Assembly: GCA_043808365.1 (NCBI GenBank)
Contig: JAZDEZ010000021.1
Span: 128,403 to 192,402, forward strand
Length of the DNA: 64,000 bases
Direction: 5' to 3'
Source: Patescibacteria group bacterium
GTDB taxonomy: Bacteria > Patescibacteriota > Patescibacteriia > UBA10025 > JAHIVO01
Position 1 is the first letter of the stretch. Every line of letters begins with the position of its first letter. A program made the translations under genes and the position numbers. Below the pieces are notes generated by a model that was given only the letters and a program-made list of their open reading frames with translations, was not told where the DNA came from and searched no databases. This document shows positions 3,809 to 29,004 of this stretch, piece by piece.

Positions 3809-4126
3809 TTATGCATTTCTGATAATAAGCATGATCCCTATGTAGCAGATGAGTTCCACGGCCAGCCAGCCGATGGTATAGAACATGAAGACGATCCCTT
3901 CCCGGCGCAGGCCGGTCAGGAACAGATAGGCCGGGCGGCCGAGCACCAGCAAGCCGACTATGGCGGCCGAGACGCAGAATAGCAGGAGTATAGCGACCGC
4001 CCCGAAGACATTGTCAGCTTCTCCGAATACCTTCGAGCCATTCATCATAAAGGTGGCCACAGCACTGACGTACGCGACGACGATCAGGGCATGGATAAGG
4101 CTGGCCAGGAGAGGCTTTTTATACAT
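3809..4126 (-). CDS. small integral membrane protein, function unknown
   Basis: 105-aa ORF with three hydrophobic spans. No recognisable motif. Confidence 0.45.
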   Translation of the reverse strand: MYKKPLLASLIHALIVVAYVSAVATFMMNGSKVFGEADNVFGAVAILLLFCVSAAIVGLLVLGRPAYLFLTGLRREGIVFMFYTIGWLAVELICYIGIMLIIRNA

Positions 4127-4192
4127 GGTTTAGTTCTTAAATAATTGAGTTTTTTATTATATCAGAAAGGCTGTTAGTTGGCCATGAGCTTG

Positions 4193-4221
4193 GAAAAAAA
4201 AGAGCAGCCGAGGGGCTGCTC
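4193..4221 (-). terminator. rho-independent terminator after the 4248-4499 gene
   Basis: GAGCAGCC-GAGG-GGCTGCTC is a perfect 8-bp stem. An A9 run on the plus strand gives a U-run on the minus strand. Confidence 0.8.
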
Positions 4222-4247
4222 AATTGTGATTAGGCGAGGAAAGATGG

Positions 4248-4499
4248 TTAGGGTTGGCGGTCGATATAAATACCGTTTTCCCCAACCCGCAACACGGCAA
4301 TCGCGGCGTTTTCATCTAATTTGCCATCATAGTTGCCGTCAGTAACGCATTTGGCATCTAGGCCGAACAAGTGGTCCCCGATTCTCAAACCCGCCTCACG
4401 TTTATGCTTGCTCACAAATCTTTTTGCGGCGCCAGTGTCTGTAAAAATTTTTTTGAACGGAACCCGACCGTCACTTTTTACTAACCGAAAAGGCTTCAT
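4248..4499 (-). CDS. hypothetical small protein
   Basis: ATG (MKPFRLVK...) is preceded by GGAGGA. The TTG start of the track at 4517 is less likely. Confidence 0.4.
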   Translation of the reverse strand: MKPFRLVKSDGRVPFKKIFTDTGAAKRFVSKHKREAGLRIGDHLFGLDAKCVTDGNYDGKLDENAAIAVLRVGENGIYIDRQP

Positions 4500-4571
4500 G
4501 CCATCCTCCGTTGTCAAAAGGTCTATTCTTTATGTTTCCGAATAATTGTAATCTTTTATTATGATCCAGTC

Positions 4572-4679
4572 AACCCCGTTAGAAAATGTACAAAGAATCA
4601 TTTCCTTATAGAAGGACAGTAATTGATATTAACTTTCCCTAATTGTATGAACAATAATTGTACATTTTCTAACGGGGTT
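4572..4679. mobile_element. 108-bp MITE-like element with perfect 22-bp terminal inverted repeats
   Basis: AACCCCGTTAGAAAATGTACAA at 4572-4593 has its exact reverse complement at 4658-4679. The right end overlaps the mgtA stop codon. The termini resemble those flanking the GIY-YIG ORF at 62940/63217. Confidence 0.7.
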
Positions 4680-7221
4680 ATCTCGCTTGGGCCGCCTTTT
4701 TTTCAAGATGCCGATAAAACCAAACTTTAACCCCTTGGACGCAAACCAGGTAAATGACGACCAGGCCGGTAATGGCGGCGAGCATGCCCCAGGAGAGCGG
4801 CTCGAATTTCAGGTATTTATTGAGGAATATGTACGGCAGGATCCACCCCAGGATGACCGAACCAAGCGTGGTTGCCAATAAAATGCGGCTCGGCGAGCTT
4901 TGGATGAACGGTATCTTTCTTGTCCGGATGACGTAAATGACGAATGTCTGGGTGGCCAGTGATTCCATGAACCAGGCGGCCTGGAACTGGTGCACCGCCG
5001 GGTGGAACAGGTAGTATAGGGCGCCGATAGTGGCGAAATCGAAAATCGAACTGATCGGCCCGAAGACAAACATGTATTTGCGGATGAAGGAAATGTCCCA
5101 TTTCAATGGTTTCCGGATGTCCCGCTGGTCGACCTTGTCAGTTGAAATGGTGAATTGGGAAGAATCATACATCAGGTTATTGAGCAGGACCTGCGACGGC
5201 AGCATCGGGAAAAATGGCAGAATGGCTGACAGGCCGGCCATGGAAAACATATTGCCGAAGTTCGAGCTCAAGCCCATCAGGATGTATTTCATGGTGTTTT
5301 GGAATGTCTTGCGGCCTTCGATCACGCCGTCGCGCAGTACGCGCATGCTTTTATGAAGCAAAATGATGTCAGCGGTGTCTTTGGCCACGTCCACCGCGTT
5401 GTTGACCGAGATGCCGACGTCGGCGGCGCGCAGTGCCGGGGCGTCATTGATGCCGTCGCCCAGGTAGCCGACGGAGTGTTTGGCTTTTTTCAGGATCAGG
5501 ATGATGCGCTCTTTTTGCGCCGGCGCAATGCGGGCAAAGATGGTCGTCCGGCTGGCCAGGTGGATGAGTTCGTCGTCATTCATGTGCAGGAGCTCGTTGC
5601 CGGTCGTTACGCCGCGGACCGGCAGGCCGATGTCGCGGCAGACTTTTTCCGTCAGGAGTTCGCTGTCGCCGGTCAGGATTTTTATTTCCACGCCCAAGCT
5701 GGCCAGCTCGCTGATCGCTTCGGTCACGGATTGTTTCGGAGGGTCGTAGAACGCGACGAACCCCAAGAAATTCATGTCCCGTTCGTCTGGATTGGCGTAC
5801 GGCCCGGTTTGAAGCTTGGCCGGCTTGTATGACACACCCAGGACCCGGAAACCGTCGCGGCTTAAGGCGTCGTATTCATGCTGGGCCGCTTCGCGGTTCA
5901 GTCCGTCAAACGGCAGGTCGCGCCCGCCGGAGCGGTAGGTCTTGCAGATCGGCAGGACGAATTCCGGCGCGCCTTTCGTGATCATCGTTCTTTTATTTTC
6001 TTTTTCCACGACGATGGATTCCCGCCGGCGCTGGAAATCAAACGGCAGTTCATCATATTTTTTATAGCCAGTCACGTCAAGATGCGTAAATTCGCGGATG
6101 GCGCCATCAAGCGGGTTTTTGACGCCGGTATGGAAGATGCTGTTCAGGTACGTAAAATAGAGGACTTCATCTGAATCATGGCCGGACCAGTCCACGTGCC
6201 TGACGAGCGTAATCTTGTTTTCAGTCAATGTGCCGGTTTTGTCGGTACAGAGGATGTCCATGCTGCCGAGGTTCTGGATGGAGGACAGGTTCTTCACGAT
6301 CACGTTTTTTTTTGACATCTTCATCGAGCCGTGGCTCAATGCCAGGGCGATGATCATGGGCAGGAGTTCCGGCGTCAGGCCGATGGCGATGGCCAGGGCG
6401 AAGATGAACGATTCGAAAATCCCGCGGTGCACGAATGCGTTGATGCCGAAGACCAGCACCACCAGCACGAACGTCACCTGCATGATCAGGTAGCTGAATT
6501 TTTTTATGCCTTTCTCGAAATCGGTTTCCTCCGGATTGGCCGCCAGACGTTCGGCAATGGCGCCGTATTTCGTGGACGCACCGGTCTTGTCTACTCGGAC
6601 GGTCGCGTATCCGGTGACGACGCTTGAGCCCATGAATACCAGATCCCGCCTTTCCGTATCGGTGAGTGTCGCGTCGATCGCGTTGGTCGCCGGCTCTTTC
6701 TCGACGGGGAACGATTCGCCAGTGAGAGCTGACTGGTTGATGAACAGATCCTTTGCCGTAAGAACCACGCAATCCGCCGGAATGATGTCGCCGGCCGTCA
6801 ATTGCACCATGTCTCCCGGGACGATTTCATTTATTTTTAATTCCTGCTCCCGGCTATCGCGTACAACGGTAGCGGTAACTGCTACTTTGGAAATGAGTGA
6901 TTGGGTGGCTTTTTCTGACCGCCGGGTATTCACGAAATCCAAAATAGCCGACATGGAGACCATGATCAGGATGATGATCGCGTCGGTGTTTTGGCCGAGG
7001 AAGATGGAGACGATCGAGGCGGCGATCAGGAGGAGGATGAGCGGGCTTTGGAATTTTTTCAGGAACGCGACCACCGGCCGCATCCGTTTCTTTTTTGCGA
7101 TCACATTCTCCCCGTATTGCTGGAGGCGACGCGCCGCTTCGGCTGAAGTCAGCCCAACAATTTCCTGGCCAGCGGTCGGATGAATCGAATTATTTTTGGA
7201 CTGAGGTTTTTTGCGGAGCAT
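4678..7221 (-). CDS. mgtA: Mg2+-importing P-type ATPase
   Basis: 847 aa with DKTGTLTENK phosphorylation motif, GDGINDAPAL hinge motif and the TM layout typical of MgtA/MgtB. Confidence 0.9.
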   Translation of the reverse strand: MLRKKPQSKNNSIHPTAGQEIVGLTSAEAARRLQQYGENVIAKKKRMRPVVAFLKKFQSPLILLLIAASIVSIFLGQNTDAIIILIMVSMSAILDFVNTRRSEKATQSLISKVAVTATVVRDSREQELKINEIVPGDMVQLTAGDIIPADCVVLTAKDLFINQSALTGESFPVEKEPATNAIDATLTDTERRDLVFMGSSVVTGYATVRVDKTGASTKYGAIAERLAANPEETDFEKGIKKFSYLIMQVTFVLVVLVFGINAFVHRGIFESFIFALAIAIGLTPELLPMIIALALSHGSMKMSKKNVIVKNLSSIQNLGSMDILCTDKTGTLTENKITLVRHVDWSGHDSDEVLYFTYLNSIFHTGVKNPLDGAIREFTHLDVTGYKKYDELPFDFQRRRESIVVEKENKRTMITKGAPEFVLPICKTYRSGGRDLPFDGLNREAAQHEYDALSRDGFRVLGVSYKPAKLQTGPYANPDERDMNFLGFVAFYDPPKQSVTEAISELASLGVEIKILTGDSELLTEKVCRDIGLPVRGVTTGNELLHMNDDELIHLASRTTIFARIAPAQKERIILILKKAKHSVGYLGDGINDAPALRAADVGISVNNAVDVAKDTADIILLHKSMRVLRDGVIEGRKTFQNTMKYILMGLSSNFGNMFSMAGLSAILPFFPMLPSQVLLNNLMYDSSQFTISTDKVDQRDIRKPLKWDISFIRKYMFVFGPISSIFDFATIGALYYLFHPAVHQFQAAWFMESLATQTFVIYVIRTRKIPFIQSSPSRILLATTLGSVILGWILPYIFLNKYLKFEPLSWGMLAAITGLVVIYLVCVQGVKVWFYRHLEKKAAQAR

Positions 7222-7294
7222 GGGGGTTCGGTACTAAAAAACCTCTTATAGTATACAATACCCGTTATGAAAAAACTATTGCCCGGGGCTTCGT

Positions 7295-7430
7295 GATTCT
7301 CCTCCGCATTAATACTCCGCAGCTTGGCCTGCTCCGCCGACCTTCCTACGCCCGCCGAAGCAGGCTTCGCGAAGGCGGGAGTAGCTTCGGCTACGAAGGC
7401 TGGACTGCGGGGAAACAAATGAGGAGAATC
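7295..7430. repeat. roughly 136-nt long imperfect palindrome upstream of mgtA
   Basis: The outer perfect 10-bp arms are GATTCTCCTC (7295-7304) and GAGGAGAATC (7421-7430). Inner arms include GCCCGCC/GGCGGGA. Further hairpins lie at 7430-7453 and 7521-7540. Confidence 0.7.
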
Positions 7431-7597
7431 CTCCGAAGCGCAAGCGAAGGAGGATAGCTAGCTACTCGCCGTCGCGTAGCCGCTCTGGCGGAGCACGGCG
7501 GAGAATGAACATATCTCTTGGCTGACGATACCTCGTCAGCTTGCCGTGAGGTAGTTCATTGTTCCATTTTACGCAGTGAGATACAATATGGGCATAT

Positions 7598-8317
7598 ATG
7601 CATTTGAAAATTGCGACGTTTAATTTTTGGGGGCTGCCCTGGCCGTTTGCGATTAGGAAAAAGGCGCGGTTGCGGATGCTGGCGGAGATGATCCGGCGGG
7701 AACAAATCGACGTGCTTGGTTGTCAGGAAGTATGGTTCAACCGTGATATTTCCTTTCTTACCCGTCAATTCCCCCAGTACTATGCTCATGCGCCCCGATC
7801 GCGTGTATATAATCGCAGTGGGCTGTTATTGCTATCGCGTTTGCCGCTATGCGATTGCGCGACGGTTCTATTTGACATGCCGATGATTACCTACGAGTTT
7901 CCGTCGCGGAAAGGCTTATTGAGCGCGAGCATCAAATTAGACGGCCAGATGACGCGGATTATCAACACGCATTTACTGTTTACCGCAAAGCCCGGACAAA
8001 GCGATCTCCAGAAGCGGCAATCTGCCCAGTTGATGCAGGTTTTGGATAACCGGCCGACACTGCTGCTCGGCGATTTCAACTGTGACGCTAGCGCCTTGCG
8101 CCTGCCGCCGCAGTGGCGCCTGATTTCCGAAAGTGCCAAGCCGTCAATAAGCATGTCCAACCGGTACGCAAAAATGCGGCTGAATAGAATCGGGATGTCA
8201 GACCGTTTGCCGGATTACATTTTTTCGAATTTTAACGTCCAGGCAGTGAAGACCCGCCTTATCACGGACCCGATCATGTCAGACCATTATCCGGTCGTGA
8301 GCGAGATCGAGGCGTAA
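7598..8317 (+). CDS. endonuclease/exonuclease/phosphatase (EEP) family protein
   Basis: 239 aa with the start IATFNFWGLPWP and the C-terminal SDHYPV motif, both typical of the EEP/sphingomyelinase-like fold. Confidence 0.75.
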   Translation: MHLKIATFNFWGLPWPFAIRKKARLRMLAEMIRREQIDVLGCQEVWFNRDISFLTRQFPQYYAHAPRSRVYNRSGLLLLSRLPLCDCATVLFDMPMITYEFPSRKGLLSASIKLDGQMTRIINTHLLFTAKPGQSDLQKRQSAQLMQVLDNRPTLLLGDFNCDASALRLPPQWRLISESAKPSISMSNRYAKMRLNRIGMSDRLPDYIFSNFNVQAVKTRLITDPIMSDHYPVVSEIEA

Positions 8318-8326
8318 AATTGCCGA

Positions 8327-8845
8327 TTATCTTCCCAAGGAAATAATTATTAAAATACCAGCCATGTTAGCAAGCCATGATATGACGGCGAATTGCCAGG
8401 CTTTGAGCTTAGTCAGGCTCATCAGGCCGGCCGACAATTCATCAGGCAATGGGGAGGCGATGATCAGCAGGCCGATGGTGTTCGCCAGCCAGGCCGGCAA
8501 GCGCACGCGTTGATGGAATGAATCCTTGATTTTAGAAAAAAAACCGCTTGTTGACTGCCGTCGGAACAAGGTAAATAAGCCAAAATCATACAGGGCGCAT
8601 CCTAGGCTGGCGATGATCGCCGCCAGTACCGGATTGTTTTCCTCGGTGAGCTCGAACAGGATGATTGTAGCCGTACTGGATGTAAAAGCCGTGCCATACA
8701 GTATGCCGGCCAAAAAGACGCCGGCATAGCCGGCAGAAGCGATGGTCAGTAATAAATCCCTGACGGACGGGAAAAGCATGCCGATGGCGGCTACTGCCAG
8801 GCCGCAGACAAAAAGGATTAGTGAAGTAGTGGATTTTTTTGCCAT
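8327..8845 (-). CDS. polytopic membrane protein (possibly DedA/VTT-like)
   Basis: I use the internal start MAKKSTTSL because the longer track ORF would overlap the upstream gene. It has 5-6 hydrophobic spans. Confidence 0.45.
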   Translation of the reverse strand: MAKKSTTSLILFVCGLAVAAIGMLFPSVRDLLLTIASAGYAGVFLAGILYGTAFTSSTATIILFELTEENNPVLAAIIASLGCALYDFGLFTLFRRQSTSGFFSKIKDSFHQRVRLPAWLANTIGLLIIASPLPDELSAGLMSLTKLKAWQFAVISWLANMAGILIIISLGR

Positions 8846-10698: not shown

Positions 10699-12096
10699 CT
10701 ATTGCGGACTGGTGAGATTGTCCAGGAATACTTTAGCCAAAGCATTCCGATCGAGCGTATTGAGTTCGCGGGCGGTGGTGGGACGGTACGCCGTATAAGG
10801 GAGCGGCCCCTTTGAAGCTATAAAAAAACTTTGCTGGTGGTATATGAAAGGGAAAGCCTCGTGGAGCGAATAGTAAATTATGTCGAGATAGTACGGATTA
10901 TTATCCGTGTATCCGCCGTATTCCCACAGAGCGAAAGTGCCATAGTCACTCAAGCGGTCGCGAATAATTTTAAAAGCTTCGACAGTGTACAGGCTGGACG
11001 AGCTGGCTACTGCCGGGTTGTCGATATCCACTAGTACGGAATCATATTGGGCCGTGGTGGCGCGCAAGTAATTGAGGCCATCATTAGTAATGAGGGCAAC
11101 CTTCTTATCGCTGAGGATGCTTGAGAACTGGCGGTTTGCGGTAACAACCGCCGGATTTATCTCTACAACGTCAGCTCTGATGTTCGGGAAACTGACTACT
11201 TCGGACAGCGTGCCGCCGCAGCCCAGCCCGATATTCAGGGTCCGGTGTTCGCCCCCGCCGAGCGGTTCGATGGCGTATTTGGCCATTAAGAATTCGGTAA
11301 TTAATCCGCTTCCCTGCCCGTTGTTATCAAAAGAGCATTGGATGCGGTTATCGATCGAGAGGGTCCCATCTTTCACCGTGACCATGCCGTATGGCGAATT
11401 CCCGTAGAATTCGTAACCGGCCGGTGTCTTTAGGCCGAAGGAAAAAATGGATATCTGGCTGTCGACGGGAGCGGTCAAAAGTATGCTAGCCGCCAGCGCA
11501 ACAGCGGCTAGTACGGCCATCCGTTTCCAGCGGTGCGGCAGGATGACGAGGCTGGACGCCAGGTTGAAGCCGACTGCGCAGAGGACGGCAGCGCGGTTGC
11601 CCCACAGCGGAATAAAGATAAACCCGGCCAGGAGTGAGCCGGCAATCGCTCCGGCAATATCCGAGGCATACGCCAGGCCGGCCACTTCCCCGTCCTTTTT
11701 ATGGAGCATGGCGGTGGCCAACGGAAAAGCGGCGCCGAGTATGGCCGTGGGCACCAGCAGGATAGCCAGGCTGGCGACGGCCACGCCCCATCCGGACATC
11801 TGCGGAGTGATGACCGTAAGATTTGTCAGAACAATGCATCCATAACCGGCAACAAGTAATTGGAATACCCCGAATAGCAATTCTCGTTCGCGGACTTTAT
11901 GTAATATTTGGTGCATCATGGCGGCTCCGAGTCCTAGGCCGAACAGGAAAACTGCGAGGATGGTGGCGACGGAGTAGCTACTTTTCGTGAAATAGAAAAA
12001 CATTATCGTAGTGGCCACCACTTCGTAAATCAGCGATGAGGCGGCGCTGAATGCGAGTGAAGCCTGAACCGTTAAATTGTTCCAGTGTATTTTCAC
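10699..12096 (-). CDS. membrane-anchored spermidine synthase-like (polyamine aminopropyltransferase family) protein
   Basis: 465 aa with an N-terminal multi-TM block followed by LNIGLGCGGT, a SAM-fold glycine motif. GTG start. Confidence 0.65.
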   Translation of the reverse strand: MKIHWNNLTVQASLAFSAASSLIYEVVATTIMFFYFTKSSYSVATILAVFLFGLGLGAAMMHQILHKVRERELLFGVFQLLVAGYGCIVLTNLTVITPQMSGWGVAVASLAILLVPTAILGAAFPLATAMLHKKDGEVAGLAYASDIAGAIAGSLLAGFIFIPLWGNRAAVLCAVGFNLASSLVILPHRWKRMAVLAAVALAASILLTAPVDSQISIFSFGLKTPAGYEFYGNSPYGMVTVKDGTLSIDNRIQCSFDNNGQGSGLITEFLMAKYAIEPLGGGEHRTLNIGLGCGGTLSEVVSFPNIRADVVEINPAVVTANRQFSSILSDKKVALITNDGLNYLRATTAQYDSVLVDIDNPAVASSSSLYTVEAFKIIRDRLSDYGTFALWEYGGYTDNNPYYLDIIYYSLHEAFPFIYHQQSFFIASKGPLPYTAYRPTTARELNTLDRNALAKVFLDNLTSPQ

Positions 12097-12338
12097 GATA
12101 CTATATTCCGTTAATAGGAAGCGTTTAATTATTCTTATGTATGGTGGTAAATTTGGCGCAACGAAATAAATAAAATGCCATTATTTCATAGGAAAAGTAT
12201 ACCACATGGGGTCAAAGGATGATATTTTGCATGGTTGGCTTGAGGGCCGTACGATAACCTGGTTGCATAATGGGCGCAGTCTATGATACGCGTTTTGCCT
12301 GGGTGAGTGGCGAACCACTGAGGGGAAGGAACTCGGGC

Positions 12339-12367
12339 TTGATTGTTTAGTGCTTATGAAGTATACT
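12339..12367 (+). promoter_or_regulatory. sigma70-type promoter of csp
   Basis: TTGATT, a 17-nt spacer, then TATACT. This leaves a 5' UTR of roughly 70 nt. Confidence 0.6.
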
Positions 12368-12440
12368 CAGCGCGTAATAGGTCGAATTTCATCATCATTA
12401 TCCCTATCCATCTAATTAGCATAGAACCAATTCCAACTCT

Positions 12441-12638
12441 ATGAACGGAACTATCAAAAAGTTGACCGACAAGAACTTCGGGTTCATCATCGTCGAGGGA
12501 CAGGCCAAAGACCTGTTTTTCCACGCCAATGAGCTCCAAGGGGTGGCATTCACCGACCTCCACGAAGGTGACGCAGTCACATTCGAGGTTTCAGACACGC
12601 CAAAAGGGCCAGCCGCGGTCAAGGTCAGCAAAGCTTAA
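12441..12638 (+). CDS. csp: cold-shock domain protein (CspA family)
   Basis: 65 aa with NFGFI and FFHANEL, which are RNP1/RNP2-like motifs. Confidence 0.9.
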   Translation: MNGTIKKLTDKNFGFIIVEGQAKDLFFHANELQGVAFTDLHEGDAVTFEVSDTPKGPAAVKVSKA

Positions 12639-12666
12639 TTCAAATCTGAATTATACGAAAAGGCGC
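12540..12666 (+). repeat. 127-bp direct repeat, copy 1 (3' third of csp plus 28 nt downstream)
   Basis: 118/127 identical to 15154-15280 by hand alignment. Confidence 0.9.
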
Positions 12667-12690
12667 AGATCATATTGATCGCGCTTTTTT
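12663..12690 (+). terminator. rho-independent terminator of csp
   Basis: GCGCAGATCA-TAT-TGATCGCGC followed by T6. Confidence 0.7.
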
Positions 12691-12755
12691 GATTTGTAGG
12701 AAAAATAAAAAAACCCCCCAGTTGACAATGCAGCTAGGAGGTTTGGAGTTGTGGA

Positions 12756-15007
12756 CTATTTTCTTTTTTTTCTCTCTTTTTTCACACGTTTGGGTATGCG
12801 TTGGTAGGCCAGAACCTGCTCTCGTCGAAATGCTTTCTTTGGTATACCCGCGAGCCGACAACCTTCATACAAGCTGTCGAATCGATCAGCGATAGTTGCC
12901 CCTGAAGGCATTTTGTATTGGGAACAAAGGTCTGGATGAGAAGGCGCTCGACCATATTTTCGGTAAAAATCGATAAGCTTCTCGAGCAATTCTTTATCGC
13001 TGATTACCTTTTTATGGCCAGTGCCCAATATGCCTGCAAGCTCGCGCGCTTTTTGTAGCGAACCGAATCGTCGCGCAAATACAGATGACGAGGGTAGGCC
13101 ACTTTTTCCGCCGACATCACTGTCTGTTGGCGGCCTGCCTAGTTTCCGGTAAAACTTCTTCAGCTCAGCCAATATAACTTGATTGTCAGTATTTTTTGTT
13201 ATTTTTTTTTCAGGTATACCGGCAAGTTTGCAAGCCTTGCCCATACTACCGAAGTTACGGATAAAGGCTGCTGAAGATGGAAGGTGGTTTCTAGGACCCA
13301 GGTCGTTGGTTTGAGGGGGCCGGCTATATGTTTCGTAAAACCAGCTCAGTACGCTGAGTAGTTCTTCTTTGCTTAGCTTCACATAGGTCTTGAACAGAGC
13401 CCTGTCGGGTATGCCGGCAAACCAACATGCCTGAAATAATCCCCCAAACCGCCTGGTCAAAGAATTATCAGATGGAATATTATCCCGAATGCCGAGCTCC
13501 TCTCTTCGTGGCGCACGTCTGTACCTCGTGTAAAACGCAAACAACCTATCTAAAATAACCTCATCACTGGTTATACGTAGACTAAATGCGTTTTGCGGGA
13601 TGCCAGCTAGCACACACGCATGATAGAGCGAGCCAAACTGCGCTCTAAATGTGCTATGTGCAGGCATGCCATGTTCGGCACAACAGTCAGAATGTACAGG
13701 TGCCTTACCATGAGCCTTATAAAAATTCCACAAATATTGGAGCAGCCGTTCTTTGGTGAGCGGGAATTTTGCCTGCTGAAGGAGTTTGGTAATCTTTTTT
13801 GCTCGTTCAGCAAACTTAATCTCGCCCCAGTCGACCTGGAATTTTTTCCGCCCCTTTCCTATATGGAGTTTGCGGGATTTTGAAATAATCCCAAGTTTGA
13901 CTCGCAATTCATCCAGGAATACCAGGCGTTCGCAATTCGCGACAAAGTCGAGCACAAGCACCCGGCTTTTTCCCGGGACTTTGCGCAGACCGCGGCCAAG
14001 CTGCTGCCGGAAAATTCGCGGCGACTGGGTTGAGCGGAGAAAAACCAATACGTTCGCTTCGGGAATATCGATCCCCTCATTGAACTGGTCTACTGTAACG
14101 GCCGTACGCACCATTCCGCGGCGAACCCATTCCATCCGTTTTTCCCGTTCTGTACGTGGAATGCTTGAATGAACAGATACCGCCCCCGGCATCATAGTGG
14201 CAAATGTGTTTGCGTGTTCGATACTGGCGTCAAATACGATAATGCGTGCATCAAGCATGTTCCGTGTCCGGTCCAAAATTACCTGAACGATTTCCTCGTC
14301 ACGCTTCCGTGAAAAGAAGATACGATTCAATTTTGAAACCGTGATGAGATGCGGCGGGACATTCAGTCTGCCCTTGTTTACGATTTCATCAGCCAGTACT
14401 CTGTAGTCAACGGGCGTGAGTAAGCCTCGGACGAGCGCCTCTTCAAGGTCAAGACTATAGACTTCGGGACCGAAGATTTCCCGGATATCTACCATATCCA
14501 TGCGATCAGGTGTTGCTGTCATGCCGAGCAAGAACGCCGGTTTAAAGTAGTCGATGACTTCCCGGTAGGTCGGCGCTTGGCCATGGTGGGATTCGTCAAC
14601 CACGATATAGTCGAAACGTTTCTTGCCAAAGGGGTTCCGTTTTTTCGCCTTGAAGTTAGGAGCGAAGTCTGAAGACTTTGAAACGTGGCAAACGTGATAT
14701 CGGCGCGCGATTCCTTCTGGTACCCATTGAATGACCCGTAGGTCACCTCGCGCCCAAAAATCCGACGATATGAAATTTTCGCCTGTTCCAGCAGGTCATT
14801 TTGGTGTGCCAAGAACAATAGGCGTGCATCGGGACGCTGTTGTCGAAAACGCTGGAAATCAAACGCAGACGTATATGTCTTTCCAAGGCCCGATGCCATC
14901 ACATACAGTACGGTGGTCAGGCCTTTCCGTCGCATCCGCGCAATCGCGGCCAAACATTCTTTTTGATGTGGCCATGCGACAATTCTCTTCTTCATGGTAT
15001 ACCTCAC
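12756..15007 (-). pseudogene. SF2 (DEAD/DEAH, type III restriction Res-like) helicase, frameshifted, with C-terminal repeat array
   Basis: The N-terminal ORF (14519-15007) carries MASGLGKTY (motif I). The C-terminal ORF (12756-14603), extended upstream in its frame, reads FDYIVVDESHH (motif II) and MTATP (motif III). The frames switch near 14670-14690. Confidence 0.7.
12828..13760 (-). repeat. five tandem ~60-aa coding repeats in the helicase C-terminus
   Basis: Each unit reads ...FY..(Y/H)GR.P...D......P.....(F)..(R)FGS(L)..A...AGIP. This resembles the homing-endonuclease-associated repeat, from memory of that Pfam family. Confidence 0.6.
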
Positions 15008-15153
15008 TGACTATCGTTTATTGTTACTTATTTCATTGTTAAGGATCACTACAAATGATGATTTATGTAGTGCGTCATCATAGTATAATGAACCGCACAA
15101 GTCAATATTAAAAACCATGAACTCTGAGGCTCCGCTTAGGATGATTTTCTGCT

Positions 15154-15280
15154 GGGGTGGCATTCACCGACCTCCACGAAGGTGACGCGGTCACATTCGA
15201 GGTCTCGGACACGCCCAAGGGCCCAGCCGCGGTCAAGGTCAGTAAAGCTTAATTCAAACTTGAATTATACGAAAAGGCGC
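15154..15280 (+). repeat. 127-bp direct repeat, copy 2 (orphan csp 3' fragment plus downstream)
   Basis: It has 9 differences from copy 1. The 7 inside the csp frame are all third-position and synonymous. Its own hairpin plus T5 lies at 15276-15305. Confidence 0.9.
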
Positions 15281-15362
15281 TCGTCATGCTGACAAGTGCC
15301 TTTTTAGTATGACTCTGGCTGCTGTTCGTCCCGCGAAAAGTCTGGATAGGCCAGTCTTAATA

Positions 15363-16514
15363 TTAAGCGAGTTCGATGACGAATTCCGCTCCTTTGCTAT
15401 TCATGGGCTGTTGGGCATGGATTTTCCAGCCGTGCGCTTCGACAATTTCTTTGGTAATAGACAGTCCGAGCCCCATGCCGCCGGTGGAGCGGCTGCGCGA
15501 TTTATCCAGCCGAAAAAACCTCTCAAAAATATTTTGCAGGTGGGCGGGCGGGATGCCGACGCCATTATCCGAGAATATTATTTGTTTATCTGTTGCACTG
15601 ATGGTGATCAGTGACGCCTGGGAATAGCGGATAGCGTTTTCAATCAGGTTGGTAAATATCCTTTCGAGCAATACTGAGTCGGCGTTGATGGCGAGATGGT
15701 CGGGGATGTCCTGCTTGGCGGTGATTTTTTTTTCGGCCAGCCGGCTATCGTATGTTGAGATAATTTTTGATGCAAATGCCCGGACCATCACCGGCGCTTT
15801 TTGTATGGTTATGGATTGGCTGCGGAAATACGCATAGTCCTGCAAGCCTTCAGTCAATTCGTGCAGACGGGCCACCTGCACCTGTAAAAGTTTTATACGC
15901 TCCGGATCCATTTTGAGCACCCCATCCTGGACGCCTTCGAGCTGGGCTTGCAGGCTGGCCAGAGGCGTACGCAGCTCATGTGACGCGTCTGAAATTAAAT
16001 TTTTGCGAAGTTCTTCTATTCGCTGCAATTCAGAGGCCAAGCTGTTGAATTCATGGACGATGGTATTGAATTCTTCCGAATTTTTTTCTTCCGACAGCCG
16101 GAGCTGGTAATGGCTTTGGCGGAGTTTTTTGAGGCCATCGCTCAATTTATCCAACGGCTTGGAGATGGTGCGTGAAATCAAATAGCCGATTCCGATCGCG
16201 CCGGCCAGCGCCGCCAGTCCGATAATAAGCAACGATGACTGGAATCGGACGCGAAAATGCTCCGCCGGCGTCAGCTCGGTTCCCGCGATGGGCCCGCCGA
16301 TGGCAAAACCCTGGCCATACCACGGCGCGATCAGGGGGACGCGGCCTGACGGCGGCGCTTCTTGGTCGATAAAAATATGGTAGACGTCGTTAAAAGCCCG
16401 CTCGCCGCGCTTGACCACCAAAAAATTCAGGGAAACGAGAAGAACTACGATCAATCCGGTGATGATCAGCACGACGCGGAAGCTGATTTTCTTGAAAATT
16501 TTATTCAGATCCAT
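15363..16514 (-). CDS. sensor histidine kinase (TM-HAMP-HisKA-HATPase)
   Basis: SHELRTPL H-box plus N, G1 and G2 boxes (DNGVGIP, GGMGLGLSI). The start at 16514 overlaps the response-regulator stop by 14 nt. 16538 is an alternative start. Confidence 0.85.
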   Translation of the reverse strand: MDLNKIFKKISFRVVLIITGLIVVLLVSLNFLVVKRGERAFNDVYHIFIDQEAPPSGRVPLIAPWYGQGFAIGGPIAGTELTPAEHFRVRFQSSLLIIGLAALAGAIGIGYLISRTISKPLDKLSDGLKKLRQSHYQLRLSEEKNSEEFNTIVHEFNSLASELQRIEELRKNLISDASHELRTPLASLQAQLEGVQDGVLKMDPERIKLLQVQVARLHELTEGLQDYAYFRSQSITIQKAPVMVRAFASKIISTYDSRLAEKKITAKQDIPDHLAINADSVLLERIFTNLIENAIRYSQASLITISATDKQIIFSDNGVGIPPAHLQNIFERFFRLDKSRSRSTGGMGLGLSITKEIVEAHGWKIHAQQPMNSKGAEFVIELA

Positions 16515-17172
16515 TGGAAAATTTATAACCCATGCCAATAATTGTTTTTATGTAGGTTGGATTTTGCGGATCATCGCCGATCAGTTTGCGAATGGTTTTG
16601 ATGTGCGCGTCGATGGTCCGTTCCATGGCCTGGCGAAGGCCTTTGTCGTCTCCAATGGAGGAAAGGAGCTCGCTTCGGGTGAATACCTTGCCGGGTTGAT
16701 GTGCCAAGGTATGGAGAATTTTGAATTGGGTGGTGGTCAGCGGTATGGACCGGCCGTTTTTTTTAACCAGCATTTTTTCCTCGTCAATCTTCAGCCCGTT
16801 TGAGGATATGGCCGGTTCGTCAGCGCGCCGCAAGAGTGTTTGTATTCGAGCGACAAGAATTTTTGGCGAAAACGGCTTTTTGATATAGTCATCCGCGCCG
16901 ATCGACAGTCCCTTGAGTTCGTCCAATTCTTCTGTCCGGGCGGTAACCATAATGATCGGCACCTTGGATTTTTTTCTGATTTCCTTGGCCACTTCGATCC
17001 CGTCGCGGTTTGGGAGGTTCAGGTCCAGGACGACCAGGCTGATTGACGAATTGAATTTCAGCAGGGCCACTTCCCCGCTGGTCGCTTCTTCCACGGCAAA
17101 ACCCTCGCGTTGGAGGTACTGTTTTATTACCTCTCGGATTGATTCTTCATCTTCGACAATGAGGATTTTCAT
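16501..17172 (-). CDS. OmpR-family response regulator
   Basis: Receiver domain (ILIVEDE...VVLDLNLP) plus a winged-helix C-terminus (GMGYKF). Confidence 0.9.
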   Translation of the reverse strand: MKILIVEDEESIREVIKQYLQREGFAVEEATSGEVALLKFNSSISLVVLDLNLPNRDGIEVAKEIRKKSKVPIIMVTARTEELDELKGLSIGADDYIKKPFSPKILVARIQTLLRRADEPAISSNGLKIDEEKMLVKKNGRSIPLTTTQFKILHTLAHQPGKVFTRSELLSSIGDDKGLRQAMERTIDAHIKTIRKLIGDDPQNPTYIKTIIGMGYKFSNGSE

Positions 17173-17244: not shown

Positions 17245-17775
17245 TTATTGTACGGCCGCGTTGGTGCTGTCGGGTATAGCTGGAGGAGTCACCGTTTCAG
17301 CGGGGTTCACCTGAAGGATCTGAGCCGTAATACTGTTGTCGGTATTGGCAGTGCCTGTTGCCCGTACGGTAACGCCGACAGTTAAATCACCGGCGGTGGC
17401 GGTAGCAGACTTGGTGATGGCCGTGGATGAGGAGTAATAGACGACTTTTGTGCTGTTGTCCTGCTGTTTGACGGTGATGCTTTGGCTGTCCATACTGACG
17501 ATTTCGCCGCTTATCATTCCGCCACCGCCGAATTGCCGGCTGCCACTGGTGCCACCCGGGAAATTTCCGTTGGGAGACGTACCCATGCCGTTGACGACAA
17601 GGCCTCCGCCGAAACCGCCTGAGGACAGCCCGAGGCTATTCATTTTAGCGGTCAGCTCTTGCCCGGTGAGGCCAGAAAGTGAGTCGCGGCTTTTTTGGAA
17701 TGTCATGCCGCCGAAGAACGCGCCTGCAGTGACGATGATGGCGATGACCAACGTGACGAGGAGTTGTTTTTTCAT
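17245..17775 (-). CDS. secreted Gly-rich protein with C-terminal beta domain (DUF5666-like?)
   Basis: Signal anchor, a GGFGGG-rich linker, then SGEIVSMDSQSITVK..., an OB-like segment. Confidence 0.45.
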   Translation of the reverse strand: MKKQLLVTLVIAIIVTAGAFFGGMTFQKSRDSLSGLTGQELTAKMNSLGLSSGGFGGGLVVNGMGTSPNGNFPGGTSGSRQFGGGGMISGEIVSMDSQSITVKQQDNSTKVVYYSSSTAITKSATATAGDLTVGVTVRATGTANTDNSITAQILQVNPAETVTPPAIPDSTNAAVQ

Positions 17776-17834
17776 TATGGTTTGTTAGTAAGTAGTTAGT
17801 GATTAGTAAAAAGTAATTAGAAGTTATCGTGGCG

Positions 17835-19055
17835 TTATTCGTATTTTAAGGCATCGATTGGTCGGAGCCTGGCTGCCCGGCGGGCTGGATAGAAGCCAAA
17901 GACTATGCCAACTAGTGCGGCGACACAGAAAGCGAGGATGACGGATGACCAGGTAACTTGGGTGGAATACGTCCCGGTTTTTTGCAATATCATGGCCGCC
18001 CCCCAGCCTAAAAGTACGCCGATAATTCCTCCGATAAGGGTCATGGTGGTCGCTTCGGTCAGGAATTGTATACTGATATCGCGACTTTTTGCGCCAATCG
18101 CCTTACGGAGGCCGATTTCTTTCGTCCGTTCCGTGACGGTGGTCAACATCATGTTCATGATGCCGATGCCGCCGACCAGCAGTGAAATGCCGGCGATTGC
18201 CCCGAGGAGCATCGTCAAGGTGCTCGTGGCGCTGGTCAGGCTGGACACTAGGTCGGCCTGGTTCTGGACCCGGAAGTCGGCTGATGATGAATCAGAAATG
18301 TTATGTTGCTCAAGTAAAATGTTGGTAGCCTCTTGTTGGGCGGCGCTGAGACTGTTTTCGTTGATAGCCTGAATATATATGGAGCTGAGGGACGTCCGGC
18401 CAGCCAAGAAACGCTGGGCAGTGGTCAAGGGAATGAAAATGGAATTATCCGATGTGTTGATTTCTGTCCCGCCCTGAGTAGCAGTGACGCCGATAACTTT
18501 AAACTGGATTTTATTGATTTTCATTGTCAGGCCAACGGGATCCGCACCTTCACCGAAAAGGTCGTCGCGGATGGTGGAGCCTATGACCGCAACTTTTGAA
18601 TAGTTTTGTACCTGTTGGTCGGAAAAAAATGATCCGGTGGCGACGGACACGTTGCGGATAGTAATATAGGCTGGTTCTGTGCCGATAACCTGGGCATTGG
18701 TATTGTTGCCGCTGTACGTGACTTGGTATCGCGAACTGATGACCGGGGCAATGGCCGCCGCAAAGGTCATCTGTTTTTTCAATGTCGTTACGTCTGCAGT
18801 GGTGAGGGTAGTCGCGCTGCCGGCGCCACCTCTGACCGGTCCGGCATTTCGTGAAAATGTCGGGGAGATAGTGAGTAAATTTGTCCCGAGTGAGGTAATA
18901 TTGGATGTTACTTCCGCTGTTGCGCCTTGTCCGACACTGACCAGCGCGATGACCGATCCGATGCCTATGACAATGCCGAGCATGGTCAGGCCGGACCTCA
19001 CTTTATTGCCGAACAGGTTTGAATATGTTTCTGAGAGTAAATCGGCAATGGTCAT
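17835..19055 (-). CDS. ABC transporter permease, MacB/FtsX family
   Basis: 406 aa with MacB-type N-terminal TM, a large periplasmic domain and a C-terminal FtsX 3-TM block. The start overlaps the ATPase stop (ATGA). Confidence 0.85.
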   Translation of the reverse strand: MTIADLLSETYSNLFGNKVRSGLTMLGIVIGIGSVIALVSVGQGATAEVTSNITSLGTNLLTISPTFSRNAGPVRGGAGSATTLTTADVTTLKKQMTFAAAIAPVISSRYQVTYSGNNTNAQVIGTEPAYITIRNVSVATGSFFSDQQVQNYSKVAVIGSTIRDDLFGEGADPVGLTMKINKIQFKVIGVTATQGGTEINTSDNSIFIPLTTAQRFLAGRTSLSSIYIQAINENSLSAAQQEATNILLEQHNISDSSSADFRVQNQADLVSSLTSATSTLTMLLGAIAGISLLVGGIGIMNMMLTTVTERTKEIGLRKAIGAKSRDISIQFLTEATTMTLIGGIIGVLLGWGAAMILQKTGTYSTQVTWSSVILAFCVAALVGIVFGFYPARRAARLRPIDALKYE

Positions 19056-19774
19056 ATGCGTGTTTCCTCGATTTTAGTATGGTTGTTAGTTGGCGTGTCT
19101 TGGACAATTTGTCCATCACGCAGCCTGATAATGCGTGAGGCGTGTTCAGCCACATATTGGTCATGGGTAATCAGGATAATAGTCCGGCCGCTAGTGTTTA
19201 ACTCCTGAAATGATTGCAGTACCACTTGGCCGGTTTTCTGGTCCAGGTTTCCGGTCGGTTCATCGGCCAGGATAATGGCCGGGTCATTGACGAGCGCCCG
19301 GGCAATCGCGACCCGTTGGATTTGCCCGCCGGAAAGCTGGTTTGACCGTTTATGATAGTGAGAAGTATCGTTTATGCCGGCATTGCTCAATGCTTTATTG
19401 GCAATCGCTTCACGCTGATCCCGTTTTACGTTCGCGTACATGAGGGGCATTTCCACATTCCGCAGGACCGATATGCGGGGCAACAGGTTGAAAGCCTGAA
19501 AAACGAAACCGATCCTTTTACTGCGGATGTCGGCCAGCTGGTTATCGGAAAGCCTGGAGACATCTTTGCCTTCCAGGTTGTATTGGCCGCTGGTCGGGAT
19601 ATCGAGTACGCCGAGGATGTGCATGAGCGTTGATTTACCGGAACCGGACGGCCCGATGATGGCCACGAATTCGCCAGGCATGATGCTGAACGAAATGTCC
19701 CGCAGGACGGTAGTCTTTACGTCGCCCGTAACGAACGTCTTGGTGATTTTTTCACATTCAATTATTGGTTTCAT
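19052..19774 (-). CDS. ABC transporter ATP-binding protein (MacB/LolD-like)
   Basis: Walker [10 protein letters not shown], signature [15 protein letters not shown] and Walker [12 protein letters not shown]. Confidence 0.9.
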
Positions 19775-19783
19775 GGGAGTGTG

Positions 19784-21238
19784 TTAAAATCCGCCGGGAG
19801 GGCCACCGGCAGTTCCGGTAGTAAACATTTGGCCGCCGACGACGTCAAAACCTGAGTTATTGCGTGAAGAGTTGGCGTTTGAATTGGTTGAGGACGAACC
19901 CGTGGTAATTGTTTGCGTGATGACTGAGTCGCCCTCTGACAGGCCTGACGTAATTTCCGTCTGCGTGTCGCTGGTTGAGCCAATCTCCACCGTTTGCTGG
20001 ATCGGGGAGCCGTCTTTGAGTATCTGGACGTAATGGGTGGTGCCGCTTGTTTTTATCGCGCTGGAAGAAACCATCAGTACATCCTGTTTAACGTCGGTCG
20101 TAATGGTCGCATTAACGCTCATTTCAGGCTTGACTTTTGAATCAAGTGAATCAAAGCCGATCGTGGCGCTGTATGTCACGACGCCCTGTGTTGACGTGCC
20201 CGCAGTGTCAACTACTTCTACTGAGCCGGTCTGGGTAAGGTCGCTGACAGCGTCAAAGGTCATGCTGGTTTTTTGGCCGACTTTAACAGAGGCGATGTCC
20301 ACTTCATTAATAGAAACGACTGCCTTAAGGCTCGTCAAATCCTGGATTACGATGGCGCTGCTGCCACTGTTGGTTGCAGAAGAACCGTTGCCTGTACTGC
20401 TACTGCTTAGTTCGCCATTATTTTTTACATTGATGGCCGTCACTGTCCCACTGATAGGTGCCGTCACAGTCCGTTCGCTAGCGGTTTTTTGTTGGTTCTC
20501 ATAATCAAGTTTGGCCGACGCTACGTCGTTCTCCGCCGCCTGGACATTGATAGTGGCCGTATCGACTTTGGATTTTGCGCTGGTGATGTTGTCGCTTGTC
20601 CCGGCTTTGGCTTTAGTCAGGTCAGTTTGTGTTGATGTAACATCACTCTCCTTTAATTTAATAGTAGAGTAATCAACCGTAACTTTTTTTTCTGCCAGGC
20701 TTATTTCATAGTCTGAATGTGCGTCTGAATCAGTCTCATATTTATCCAGAGTAGCTTGATCCTGGGACAGCTGGACTTTTGCCTGGGCTAAGGCTTGGAC
20801 GGCCTGGTCGTATGTCAGCTGGGCTTGAGTGACCGCTGTTTTCTTCACTTTTTCATAATCCTGTTTAGACGTCGTCAGGTCTGATTGGGCCTGGGAAAGC
20901 TTTTGTTGCGACTGGAGCAGACTGGTGTATGCCTTGCTGACCGTGACATCCAGGTCATCGTTGATGATCGTGAAAAGCGTCTGGCCGGATTTGACCTGAT
21001 CGCCGACCGCGACTTTCAGGCCTGTGACAGTTCCTGAAATGCTCGGGCTGACATTGGCGCTGGATGAGACGGTGATATTCCCCGTACCCGTGACCGTGGA
21101 GACGAGGGTGCCTTTGGCGGCTTCAGCTGTCTGGTAAGTAACGGTCGCCGATGAGGCTTTTTTGTGTCGGTAATATAAAAATGCCCCCGTGCCTATTAAG
21201 GCAATGATGATGATGGAAATAATAACTTTCTTTTTCAT
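19784..21238 (-). CDS. HlyD/MacA-type membrane fusion (periplasmic adaptor) protein
   Basis: N-terminal anchor, lipoyl-like GTVTGLKVAVGDQVKSGQTLF, a long coiled coil and a beta-barrel domain. Confidence 0.8.
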   Translation of the reverse strand: MKKKVIISIIIIALIGTGAFLYYRHKKASSATVTYQTAEAAKGTLVSTVTGTGNITVSSSANVSPSISGTVTGLKVAVGDQVKSGQTLFTIINDDLDVTVSKAYTSLLQSQQKLSQAQSDLTTSKQDYEKVKKTAVTQAQLTYDQAVQALAQAKVQLSQDQATLDKYETDSDAHSDYEISLAEKKVTVDYSTIKLKESDVTSTQTDLTKAKAGTSDNITSAKSKVDTATINVQAAENDVASAKLDYENQQKTASERTVTAPISGTVTAINVKNNGELSSSSTGNGSSATNSGSSAIVIQDLTSLKAVVSINEVDIASVKVGQKTSMTFDAVSDLTQTGSVEVVDTAGTSTQGVVTYSATIGFDSLDSKVKPEMSVNATITTDVKQDVLMVSSSAIKTSGTTHYVQILKDGSPIQQTVEIGSTSDTQTEITSGLSEGDSVITQTITTGSSSTNSNANSSRNNSGFDVVGGQMFTTGTAGGPPGGF

Positions 21239-28665: not shown

Positions 28666-29004
28666 TTAAGCTGCCGATTCTTTCAGTTTCTTTTTATAAC
28701 CTTGGAGGTAATACAATTTGGCTCGGCGGACTTTCGCTTTTTTTGTGACTTCGATTTTTGAAATAGTCGGTGAGTGCAGGGGGAATATTTTTTCTACGCC
28801 GATGCCCTCGGAAATCTTGCGGACCGTGATGGTGGCAGTCAGCCCTTGGCCGCCGCGTCGGGAGATGACCAATCCCTCAAATTTCTGCGTGCGCTCTTTT
28901 TCGCCTTCCTTGATTTTTTGGTGGATAATGACCGTGTAACCAGGCTGGACATCTGGCAGGTCTGCCTTTAGTTTTGACTTGTTCAGTTCATTGATGTTTA
29001 CCAT
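28666..29004 (-). CDS. rplS: 50S ribosomal protein L19
   Basis: 112 aa with PDVQPGYTVIIHQKIKEG...RTQKFEGLVISRRGGG-like core. Confidence 0.95.
   Translation of the reverse strand: MVNINELNKSKLKADLPDVQPGYTVIIHQKIKEGEKERTQKFEGLVISRRGGQGLTATITVRKISEGIGVEKIFPLHSPTISKIEVTKKAKVRRAKLYYLQGYKKKLKESAA

Follow-up and report, generated by a model that had tools for sequence, protein, structure and literature searches.

The 3' halves of two cold-shock gene alleles bracket a frameshifted helicase gene in a member of the Patescibacteria: a possible scar of integrase-independent recombination

In a 64,000-nucleotide (nt) stretch of the genome of a Patescibacteria group bacterium (GenBank assembly GCA_043808365.1, contig JAZDEZ010000021.1, positions 128,403 to 192,402; hereafter, the window), the 3' half of a cold-shock protein gene, csp, occurs twice in direct orientation, first as the end of the intact gene and again as a fragment beyond a 2.46-kb insert whose sole gene encodes a helicase. 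Two csp alleles, both under purifying selection, met at this locus, a conclusion that we consider sound. With respect to how they met, we tentatively favor, at somewhat below an even chance, the interpretation that the locus is the scar of a single integrase-independent recombination event that joined DNA from a related lineage to the resident csp.

The two copies of the repeat, located at 12540..12666 and 15154..15280 on the plus strand, are identical at 118 of 127 positions (blastn in the window, E of 2.5e-49), with weak homology continuing beyond 12666 to approximately 12690/15304; a third copy was not found by blastn in the window. Copy 1 comprises codons 34 to 65 of csp, the stop codon, and 28 nt of the 3' untranslated region (UTR). 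Copy 2, which has no promoter and no codons 1 to 33, holds the same codons and stop codon at 15154-15252, again followed by 28 nt of 3' UTR. All seven in-frame mismatches (GCA/GCG, GTT/GTC, TCA/TCG, CCA/CCC, AAA/AAG, GGG/GGC, and AGC/AGT) fall on codon position 3 and are synonymous, and the translation of copy 2 is 100% identical to residues 34 to 65 of the csp protein (tblastn). The proportion of synonymous differences (pS) is 0.29, the synonymous distance (dS) approximately 0.37, and the nonsynonymous distance (dN) 0. With 25% to 27% of possible single changes being synonymous, the probability that seven of seven random substitutions would be so is approximately 6e-5 to 1e-4.

The noncoding parts of the two copies show a similar constraint. 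The two UTR mismatches, at 12645-12646, both belong to the loop of a small hairpin (UAAUUCA, a 4-nt loop, UGAAUUA) that is formed over the csp stop codon in both copies (12636-12653 and 15252-15265) and that is kept in the related loci L006, L007, L009, and L011, with variation only in the loop. The hairpin may serve to regulate or stabilize csp mRNAs of Patescibacteria from within their 3' UTR. Each copy is followed by a terminator on the plus strand: T1, belonging to the intact csp, at 12656..12691 (fold of -22.8 kcal/mol, z of -5.4; orthologous to the terminators of L006, L009, and L011), and T2, behind the csp fragment and facing the 3' end of a histidine kinase gene, at 15266..15311 (fold of -23.7 kcal/mol, z of -5.8). 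The differences between the T1 and T2 stems are structure preserving, and both terminators align with orthologous csp terminators. It is because the changes are synonymous in seven of seven cases, and because the stop-codon hairpin and both terminators are preserved, that we regard the copies as two functional csp alleles. A preliminary description of the window had already proposed such alleles on the basis of nine mismatches in 127 nt and seven third-position, synonymous differences; our recount arrives at the same numbers and the same list, with no nonsynonymous difference. That description does need amending in two respects: the repeat includes 28 nt of downstream sequence, as it had stated, but its coding part spans the last half of csp (codons 34 to 65 of 65) and not the last third, and the hairpins behind the two copies, which do differ, are diverged versions of one orthologous terminator.

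Both copies carry the signature "AFTDL," which is unseen in the other csp proteins compared (the csp alignment and the members of the 90% cluster), and they are more similar to each other (92.9% identity) than to any relative (86% at most), from which we conclude that both alleles derive from one narrow clade. For the question of which copy is native, we compared the states at the seven variable sites and the identity to relatives; silent sites are saturated against all relatives. The topology of the locus requires recombination between two csp-bearing DNAs. The longest identical run between the copies, 35 nt at 12540-12574, is situated at their left end and is long enough to make a homologous crossover possible.

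The intact gene (12441..12638, plus strand) encodes a 65-amino-acid (aa) cold-shock protein, identical to NCBI MFH1207767.1, with a full-length cold-shock domain (Pfam CSD, PF00313, E of 1.7e-19, residues 1 to 64); NCBIfam Csp models also match it, below their equivalog cutoffs. A promoter scan placed TTGATT, a 17-nt spacer, and TATACT at 12339..12367 on the plus strand, a promoter that is conserved in L006, L011, and L008, and homology of the upstream region with L011 and L006 begins at 12338, immediately before it. In the 5' UTR (12368-12440), the box TAATAGGTCGAATTTCATC is conserved across orthologues approximately 45 to 60 nt before the start codon and has no match to an Rfam family. In the public record, the csp fragment is apparently unannotated at NCBI, where two protein accessions stand between csp and the response regulator gene; these two we assigned to the helicase and the kinase.

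The preliminary description had further stated that the 2.5 kb between the copies holds only a helicase with its own upstream region, which is what we found. The gene (12756..15007, minus strand, convergent to csp) encodes a superfamily 2 (SF2) helicase with ResIII and Helicase_C domains and four to five HNH_repeat units according to Pfam, the latter belonging to PF18780, described as "homing endonuclease associated." Its own promoter, TTGACT, a 17-nt spacer, and TATGAT, with 10 of 12 matches in the promoter scan, lies at 15077..15105 on the minus strand. A 1-nt frameshift, one missing base in a T6 run (A6 on the coding strand) at 14640-14645, splits the gene into open reading frames (ORFs) at 14519-15007 and 12756-14603. 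Adding one T to this run restores a 750-aa ORF that is colinear with an intact 753-aa homologue (P0002, 55% identity), while the NCBI annotation covers only the C-terminal 671 aa (P0001). Since this is the only split ORF in the 64-kb window, a real mutation is likelier than a sequencing error, and the helicase may be a pseudogene with a broken reading frame. Its architecture (ResIII plus Helicase_C plus PF18780) is common to thousands of Patescibacteria homologues, the best intact one of which is 52% identical, and its GC content, GC3, and codon usage are no outliers with respect to the host. No nuclease, recombinase, or transposase domain was detected in the helicase or the insert by Pfam and further profile searches, the ends of the insert carry no inverted repeats, and no structured RNA in the surrounding block matches Rfam. 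Extending the Pfam scan to all genes within approximately 10 kb revealed no recombinase either, which bears out the earlier remark that no integrase is visible.

Homologues of the helicase were examined at six loci, L001 (with the near-identical contigs L002 to L004), L005, L094, L095, L104, and L105, whose chromosomal contexts are all different and none of which has csp or a csp fragment nearby. A bracketing direct repeat is present at one of the six. At L095, 26 nt with the core GTGGAGGATGTTAGAAAC recur at 4688-4713 and 7521-7546 (88% identical, pairwise E of 2e-5), bracketing the helicase homologue at 5001-7421, with each copy just past a terminator; the motif appears nowhere else in the 96 fetched loci. 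At L105, the 3' end and flank of a tRNA-Asn gene (7660-7734, minus strand) recur behind it as two further partial copies, at 7461-7488 and 7368-7401, which look like integration or excision scars and lie approximately 0.9 kb from the helicase homologue (4001-6427) and a 194-aa ORF.

The csp protein was scanned against 185,579 species-representative genomes, and the 80 best csp loci were compared with the window. Neither a second csp fragment nor a helicase was found within 8 kb of csp at any of them, no genome contributed two loci, and at none is csp followed by an orthologue of the kinase, the nearest approach being a distant locus, L074, with a kinase-like gene (29% identical) downstream of csp. 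The kinase on the right flank of the repeat-bracketed insert (15363..16538, minus strand, Pfam) has orthologues in L006 (77%), L086 (80%), and L091 (58%). On the left flank lies mem465 (10699..12096, minus strand), a fused major facilitator superfamily/spermidine-synthase-like membrane protein gene (Pfam Spermine_synth; NCBI name from P0121), whose orthologues (73% to 74% identity) adjoin the histidine kinase gene in L086/L093 and L091. In L086/L093 the spacer between kinase and mem465 measures approximately 80 nt, and in L091 it measures 930 nt and includes a 140-aa ORF; neither spacer holds csp. L006 has two small ORFs (154 and 205 aa) behind the kinase, in place of mem465.

Because kinase and mem465 are adjacent in the relatives that have both flanks, the whole block between them in the window, approximately 3.1 kb from about 12211 to 15311, is derived, at a spot whose content varies by lineage. 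It consists of 127 nt at its left edge that have no match in the window, the fetched loci, or Rfam (12211..12337), the complete csp unit, the helicase, and the csp fragment with T2. The native left flank ends with a conserved motif at 12177..12210 that matches the region upstream of mem465 in L086 and L091.

The csp gene itself is a newcomer at this spot, since none of the flank-sharing relatives (L086/L093 and L091) has it between kinase and mem465; their csp lies approximately 2 to 7 kb away. In the closest relatives (L006; L008/L091; L011/L086/L093), csp is found across the kinase/regulator/ATP-binding cassette (ABC) operon, where it is divergent from the FtsX permease gene or a few genes past it. 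The identities are 94% for csp, 77% for the kinase, and 86% for the regulator in L006, and 80% for the kinase and 73% for mem465 in L011/L086/L093. In the window, no csp is found at this ancestral position, between the ABC operon and rplS (28666-29004). The gene after csp differs in every relative, being a radical SAM gene, a P-type ATPase gene, a membrane protein gene, or a 213-aa ORF. An empty site of the kind that the preliminary description envisaged, with csp running directly into the sequence from 15281 onward, was not found among the relatives compared.

Taken together, these data lead us to the following proposal. The donor would have been a closely related lineage of Patescibacteria whose csp was followed by the helicase, contributing a fragment with the csp 3' half, its terminator, and the convergent helicase gene, and csp would already have occupied this spot before the helicase arrived. 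Such a donor is plausible as regards gene order, given that every relative has a different gene behind csp, and as regards relatedness, given that the composition of the helicase is indistinguishable from that of the host. Host recombination, with no dedicated integrase, may have joined the two DNAs either by a single, Campbell-type crossover of the circularized fragment or by a homologous crossover in csp combined with an illegitimate join at codon 34, that is, homology-facilitated illegitimate recombination. The outcome would be an intact, possibly hybrid csp with T1, the helicase, and the other allele's displaced 3' half followed by T2, and the helicase would be passive cargo, now frameshifted. 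We prefer host recombination because there is no recombinase and no recurrence, because the helicase is not associated with csp elsewhere, because the gene downstream of csp is variable, and because the 35-nt identical run is available. With none of 80 csp loci having a second fragment or a helicase, and none of six helicase loci having csp, the event looks like a one-off.

Several observations weigh against this proposal. Neither the arrangement expected of the donor (csp, then helicase) nor that expected of the recipient (csp, then kinase) was found in any genome compared. Flank-sharing relatives have no csp at this site, and therefore at least one earlier, unexplained relocation of csp has to be invoked. 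No microhomology is visible at the 15153/15154 junction. Finally, the pattern of the mismatches, which are scattered behind an identical left-end core, is one that site-specific integrases generate just as well, as is seen in the Escherichia coli prophage e14.

The last point leads to the most serious competitor, which we nevertheless rate as rather unlikely: the block may be a decayed or non-autonomous site-specific element, of the type of e14 in icd or like the cis-mobilizable element that remains once an integrative and conjugative element (ICE) has lost its integrase, that inserted into the csp 3' half and brought a replacement 3' end with it, its integrase having been deleted or acting in trans. 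This would explain the topology equally well, as the insert stands between repeats of the csp 3' end, one of them completing the target gene and the other being the truncated, displaced copy; moreover, e14/icd provides a near-quantitative match that extends to the silent differences, the identical core at the left end, and the diverged terminators, and ICESt1/3, too, occupy the end of a protein-coding gene, namely, the 3' end of fda (PMC5812530). The idea also gains a little from the 26-nt bracket at L095 and from the position of the L105 helicase by a tRNA-Asn gene with partial 3' copies. What it lacks is the machinery and the recurrence: neither the 2.46-kb insert, which has no room for the remnant of an integrase, nor the DNA within approximately 10 kb encodes one; the csp 3' end is not reused at any of the 80 related csp loci; the helicase-homologue loci hold no csp fragments; and no viral or plasmid relatives of the block were found in the collections searched. 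Helicase relatives are absent from viral contigs, in which csp has a single distant relative (53% identity); plasmid records do not match the block; and in phage records the matches are limited to the generic SF2 helicase core, covering less than half of the protein at 28% to 36% identity. The claim of the preliminary description that an element had integrated together with a replacement 3' end is therefore only partly upheld. The layout fits, but an integrating element is not supported, in view of the missing empty site, integrase, and recurrence, and the claim is both unproven and incomplete, as csp is itself new to the site.

Alternatively, and in our view unlikely, the copies could descend from two resident tandem csp paralogues that diverged while functional, the second of which lost its promoter and first 33 codons through the insertion of the helicase or through a deletion. 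Silent-only divergence would then require no foreign donor, the lineage-specific AFTDL in both copies would be expected, and a block that is derived as a whole would fit as well. However, no relative has two csp genes within 8 kb, no genome appears twice among the 80 best matches, and gene conversion would be expected between paralogues of 93% identity. More events would also be needed, namely, a duplication, a long coexistence free of gene conversion, and an insertion with a deletion.

An assembly artifact, in which a chimeric contig arose from co-occurring strains joined across their common csp sequence, is very unlikely. The source is a metagenome-assembled genome, in which the window belongs to a 192.5-kb contig, and the contig break of L006 shortly past csp indicates that csp surroundings are hard to assemble. 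The 15153/15154 junction, however, joins unique sequence upstream of the helicase to csp codon 34 with no common k-mer on its left, so that real DNA or a chimeric read would be needed to create it; furthermore, a divergence of 7% lets assemblers pass through both copies, and a single frameshifted ORF in 64 kb speaks for good sequence quality. Least probable of all, to the point of being a long shot, is the notion that Patescibacteria have a minimal mobile cassette that lacks an integrase and has the helicase gene as its active core, with DNA-binding repeats of the homing-endonuclease type guiding it to specific sites so that it inserts by highly expressed genes with a replacement 3' end (csp here, short brackets elsewhere, as at L095).

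A number of further readings were rejected. A transposon or insertion sequence would require a transposase and terminal inverted repeats, neither of which is present, and the repeat (127 to 150 nt) is too long and too diverged for a target-site duplication. Had the insertion itself duplicated the target, the copies would have started out identical, and seven silent-only changes in a dead fragment are improbable. In a concatemer or rolling-circle unit, the copies would be identical and preceded by the same sequence; here they are not identical, and the csp 5' half to the left of copy 1 is unlike the helicase promoter to the left of copy 2. A phage or plasmid origin is contradicted by the absence of viral helicase relatives and plasmid matches, the phage match being to the generic helicase core, and a foreign origin finds no support in the composition of the helicase, whose GC, GC3, and codon usage are not outliers. 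A free-standing homing endonuclease was dismissed because the repeats are of DNA-binding type only, with no HNH or other nuclease domain, and because the flank is duplicated. Nor do csp and the helicase form a functional cold-shock pair of Csp and DEAD-box RNA helicase, as this helicase, which is frameshifted and faces csp in convergent orientation, belongs to the ResIII/RadD/restriction type.

The wider neighborhood is variable as well. In exact-sequence and 90% cluster look-ups for strain-level relatives, one contig was identified, JGI 3300075153, which is 30.6 kb long and, with a MacB permease 92% identical to that of the window, represents the closest relative on record. Behind its kinase lie a convergent 67-aa ORF, which has no Pfam match and is absent among the close csp homologues found, then a 130-aa ORF and ClpB. 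The spot behind the kinase (15305-15362 in the window) thus has five contents in five lineages: nothing, a 140-aa ORF, the 154-aa and 205-aa ORFs, the convergent 67-aa ORF followed by ClpB, and the csp-helicase block. The pattern suggests a hotspot of local recombination. A few kilobases past the kinase, at approximately 14.9 to 16.0 kb of the locus, the JGI contig carries genes resembling a type IV secretion system pilin gene and phage Mu Gam, which suggests mobile DNA near this region in that lineage. In L006, the closest species-level relative, the contig ends 142 nt past the csp stop codon (8195-8337), a break that is a possible sign of variation between strains downstream of csp in that relative as well. 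On the other side of the kinase, the response regulator gene (16501-17172, NCBI MFH1207770.1) is followed in the window by a transporter (17245-21238) that, as in the JGI contig, consists of HlyD, an ABC ATPase, and a 406-aa MacB permease; the equivalent transporter in L006, L008, and L011 comprises an ABC ATPase and an FtsX permease of 547 aa. The change of transporter coincides with csp having been lost from its ancestral position.

In our view, the locus is a clean natural example, from the little-studied Patescibacteria, of the replacement of a gene's 3' end during the insertion of foreign DNA. It draws attention to the region downstream of a conserved two-component operon as a variable spot whose content differs in each of five lineages, and it flags in the public record a csp pseudogene fragment, apparently unannotated, and a frameshifted helicase. 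The locus alone does not disclose a new mechanism of mobility. It is of value mainly for what it says about genome plasticity in reduced, episymbiotic bacteria and as a lead on whether the very widespread helicases with repeats of the homing-endonuclease type are mobile.

How does this locus compare with known systems? The islands that target tRNA and tmRNA genes resemble it in lying between direct repeats of the target 3' end and in restoring the target gene; the csp locus differs in its protein-coding target, in a longer repeat with 7% divergence, and in having no integrase by the target. ICEs of the ICESt1/ICESt3 type have integrase-less, cis-mobilizable derivatives that are flanked by attachment (att) sites. 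For elements of this type, the att sites are common to a cognate ICE in related strains, whereas no cognate element or recurrent att site was found for csp. ICESt1 and ICESt3 of Streptococcus thermophilus themselves integrate in the 3' end of fda, with att repeats (PMC5812530). Given this example and that of icd and e14, a protein-coding target is not unusual, contrary to what the preliminary description had supposed.

The closest structural parallel is prophage e14, which likewise sits inside a protein-coding housekeeping gene, at the 3' end, for which it brings a substitute; the native end, displaced, persists as a pseudogene at the far side of the prophage. When we re-measured this case in E. 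coli K-12, the repeat formed by the end of icd and by icdC was 165 nt long and 92.7% identical. Of its 12 differences, 10 are synonymous; its left end has an identical core of 11 nt, and behind each copy stands a terminator of its own, diverged from the other. The corresponding values for csp, 127 to 150 nt and 92.9% identity, are nearly equal. However, e14 spans 15.2 kb with intE/xisE and phage genes, while the csp insert spans 2.46 kb with a frameshifted helicase, and the csp target is not at its ancestral position. The real difference from e14/icd is that here there is no recombinase.

Homology-facilitated illegitimate recombination was reportedly demonstrated by experiment in naturally transformable bacteria by de Vries and Wackernagel in 2002. 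Neither a donor nor a recipient configuration was found for csp, in which our locus differs from that process. In common with Campbell-type insertion, however, it needs no dedicated recombinase: one homologous anchor, here csp, together with an illegitimate join inserts the foreign DNA, and the donor and recipient versions of the anchor may remain side by side.

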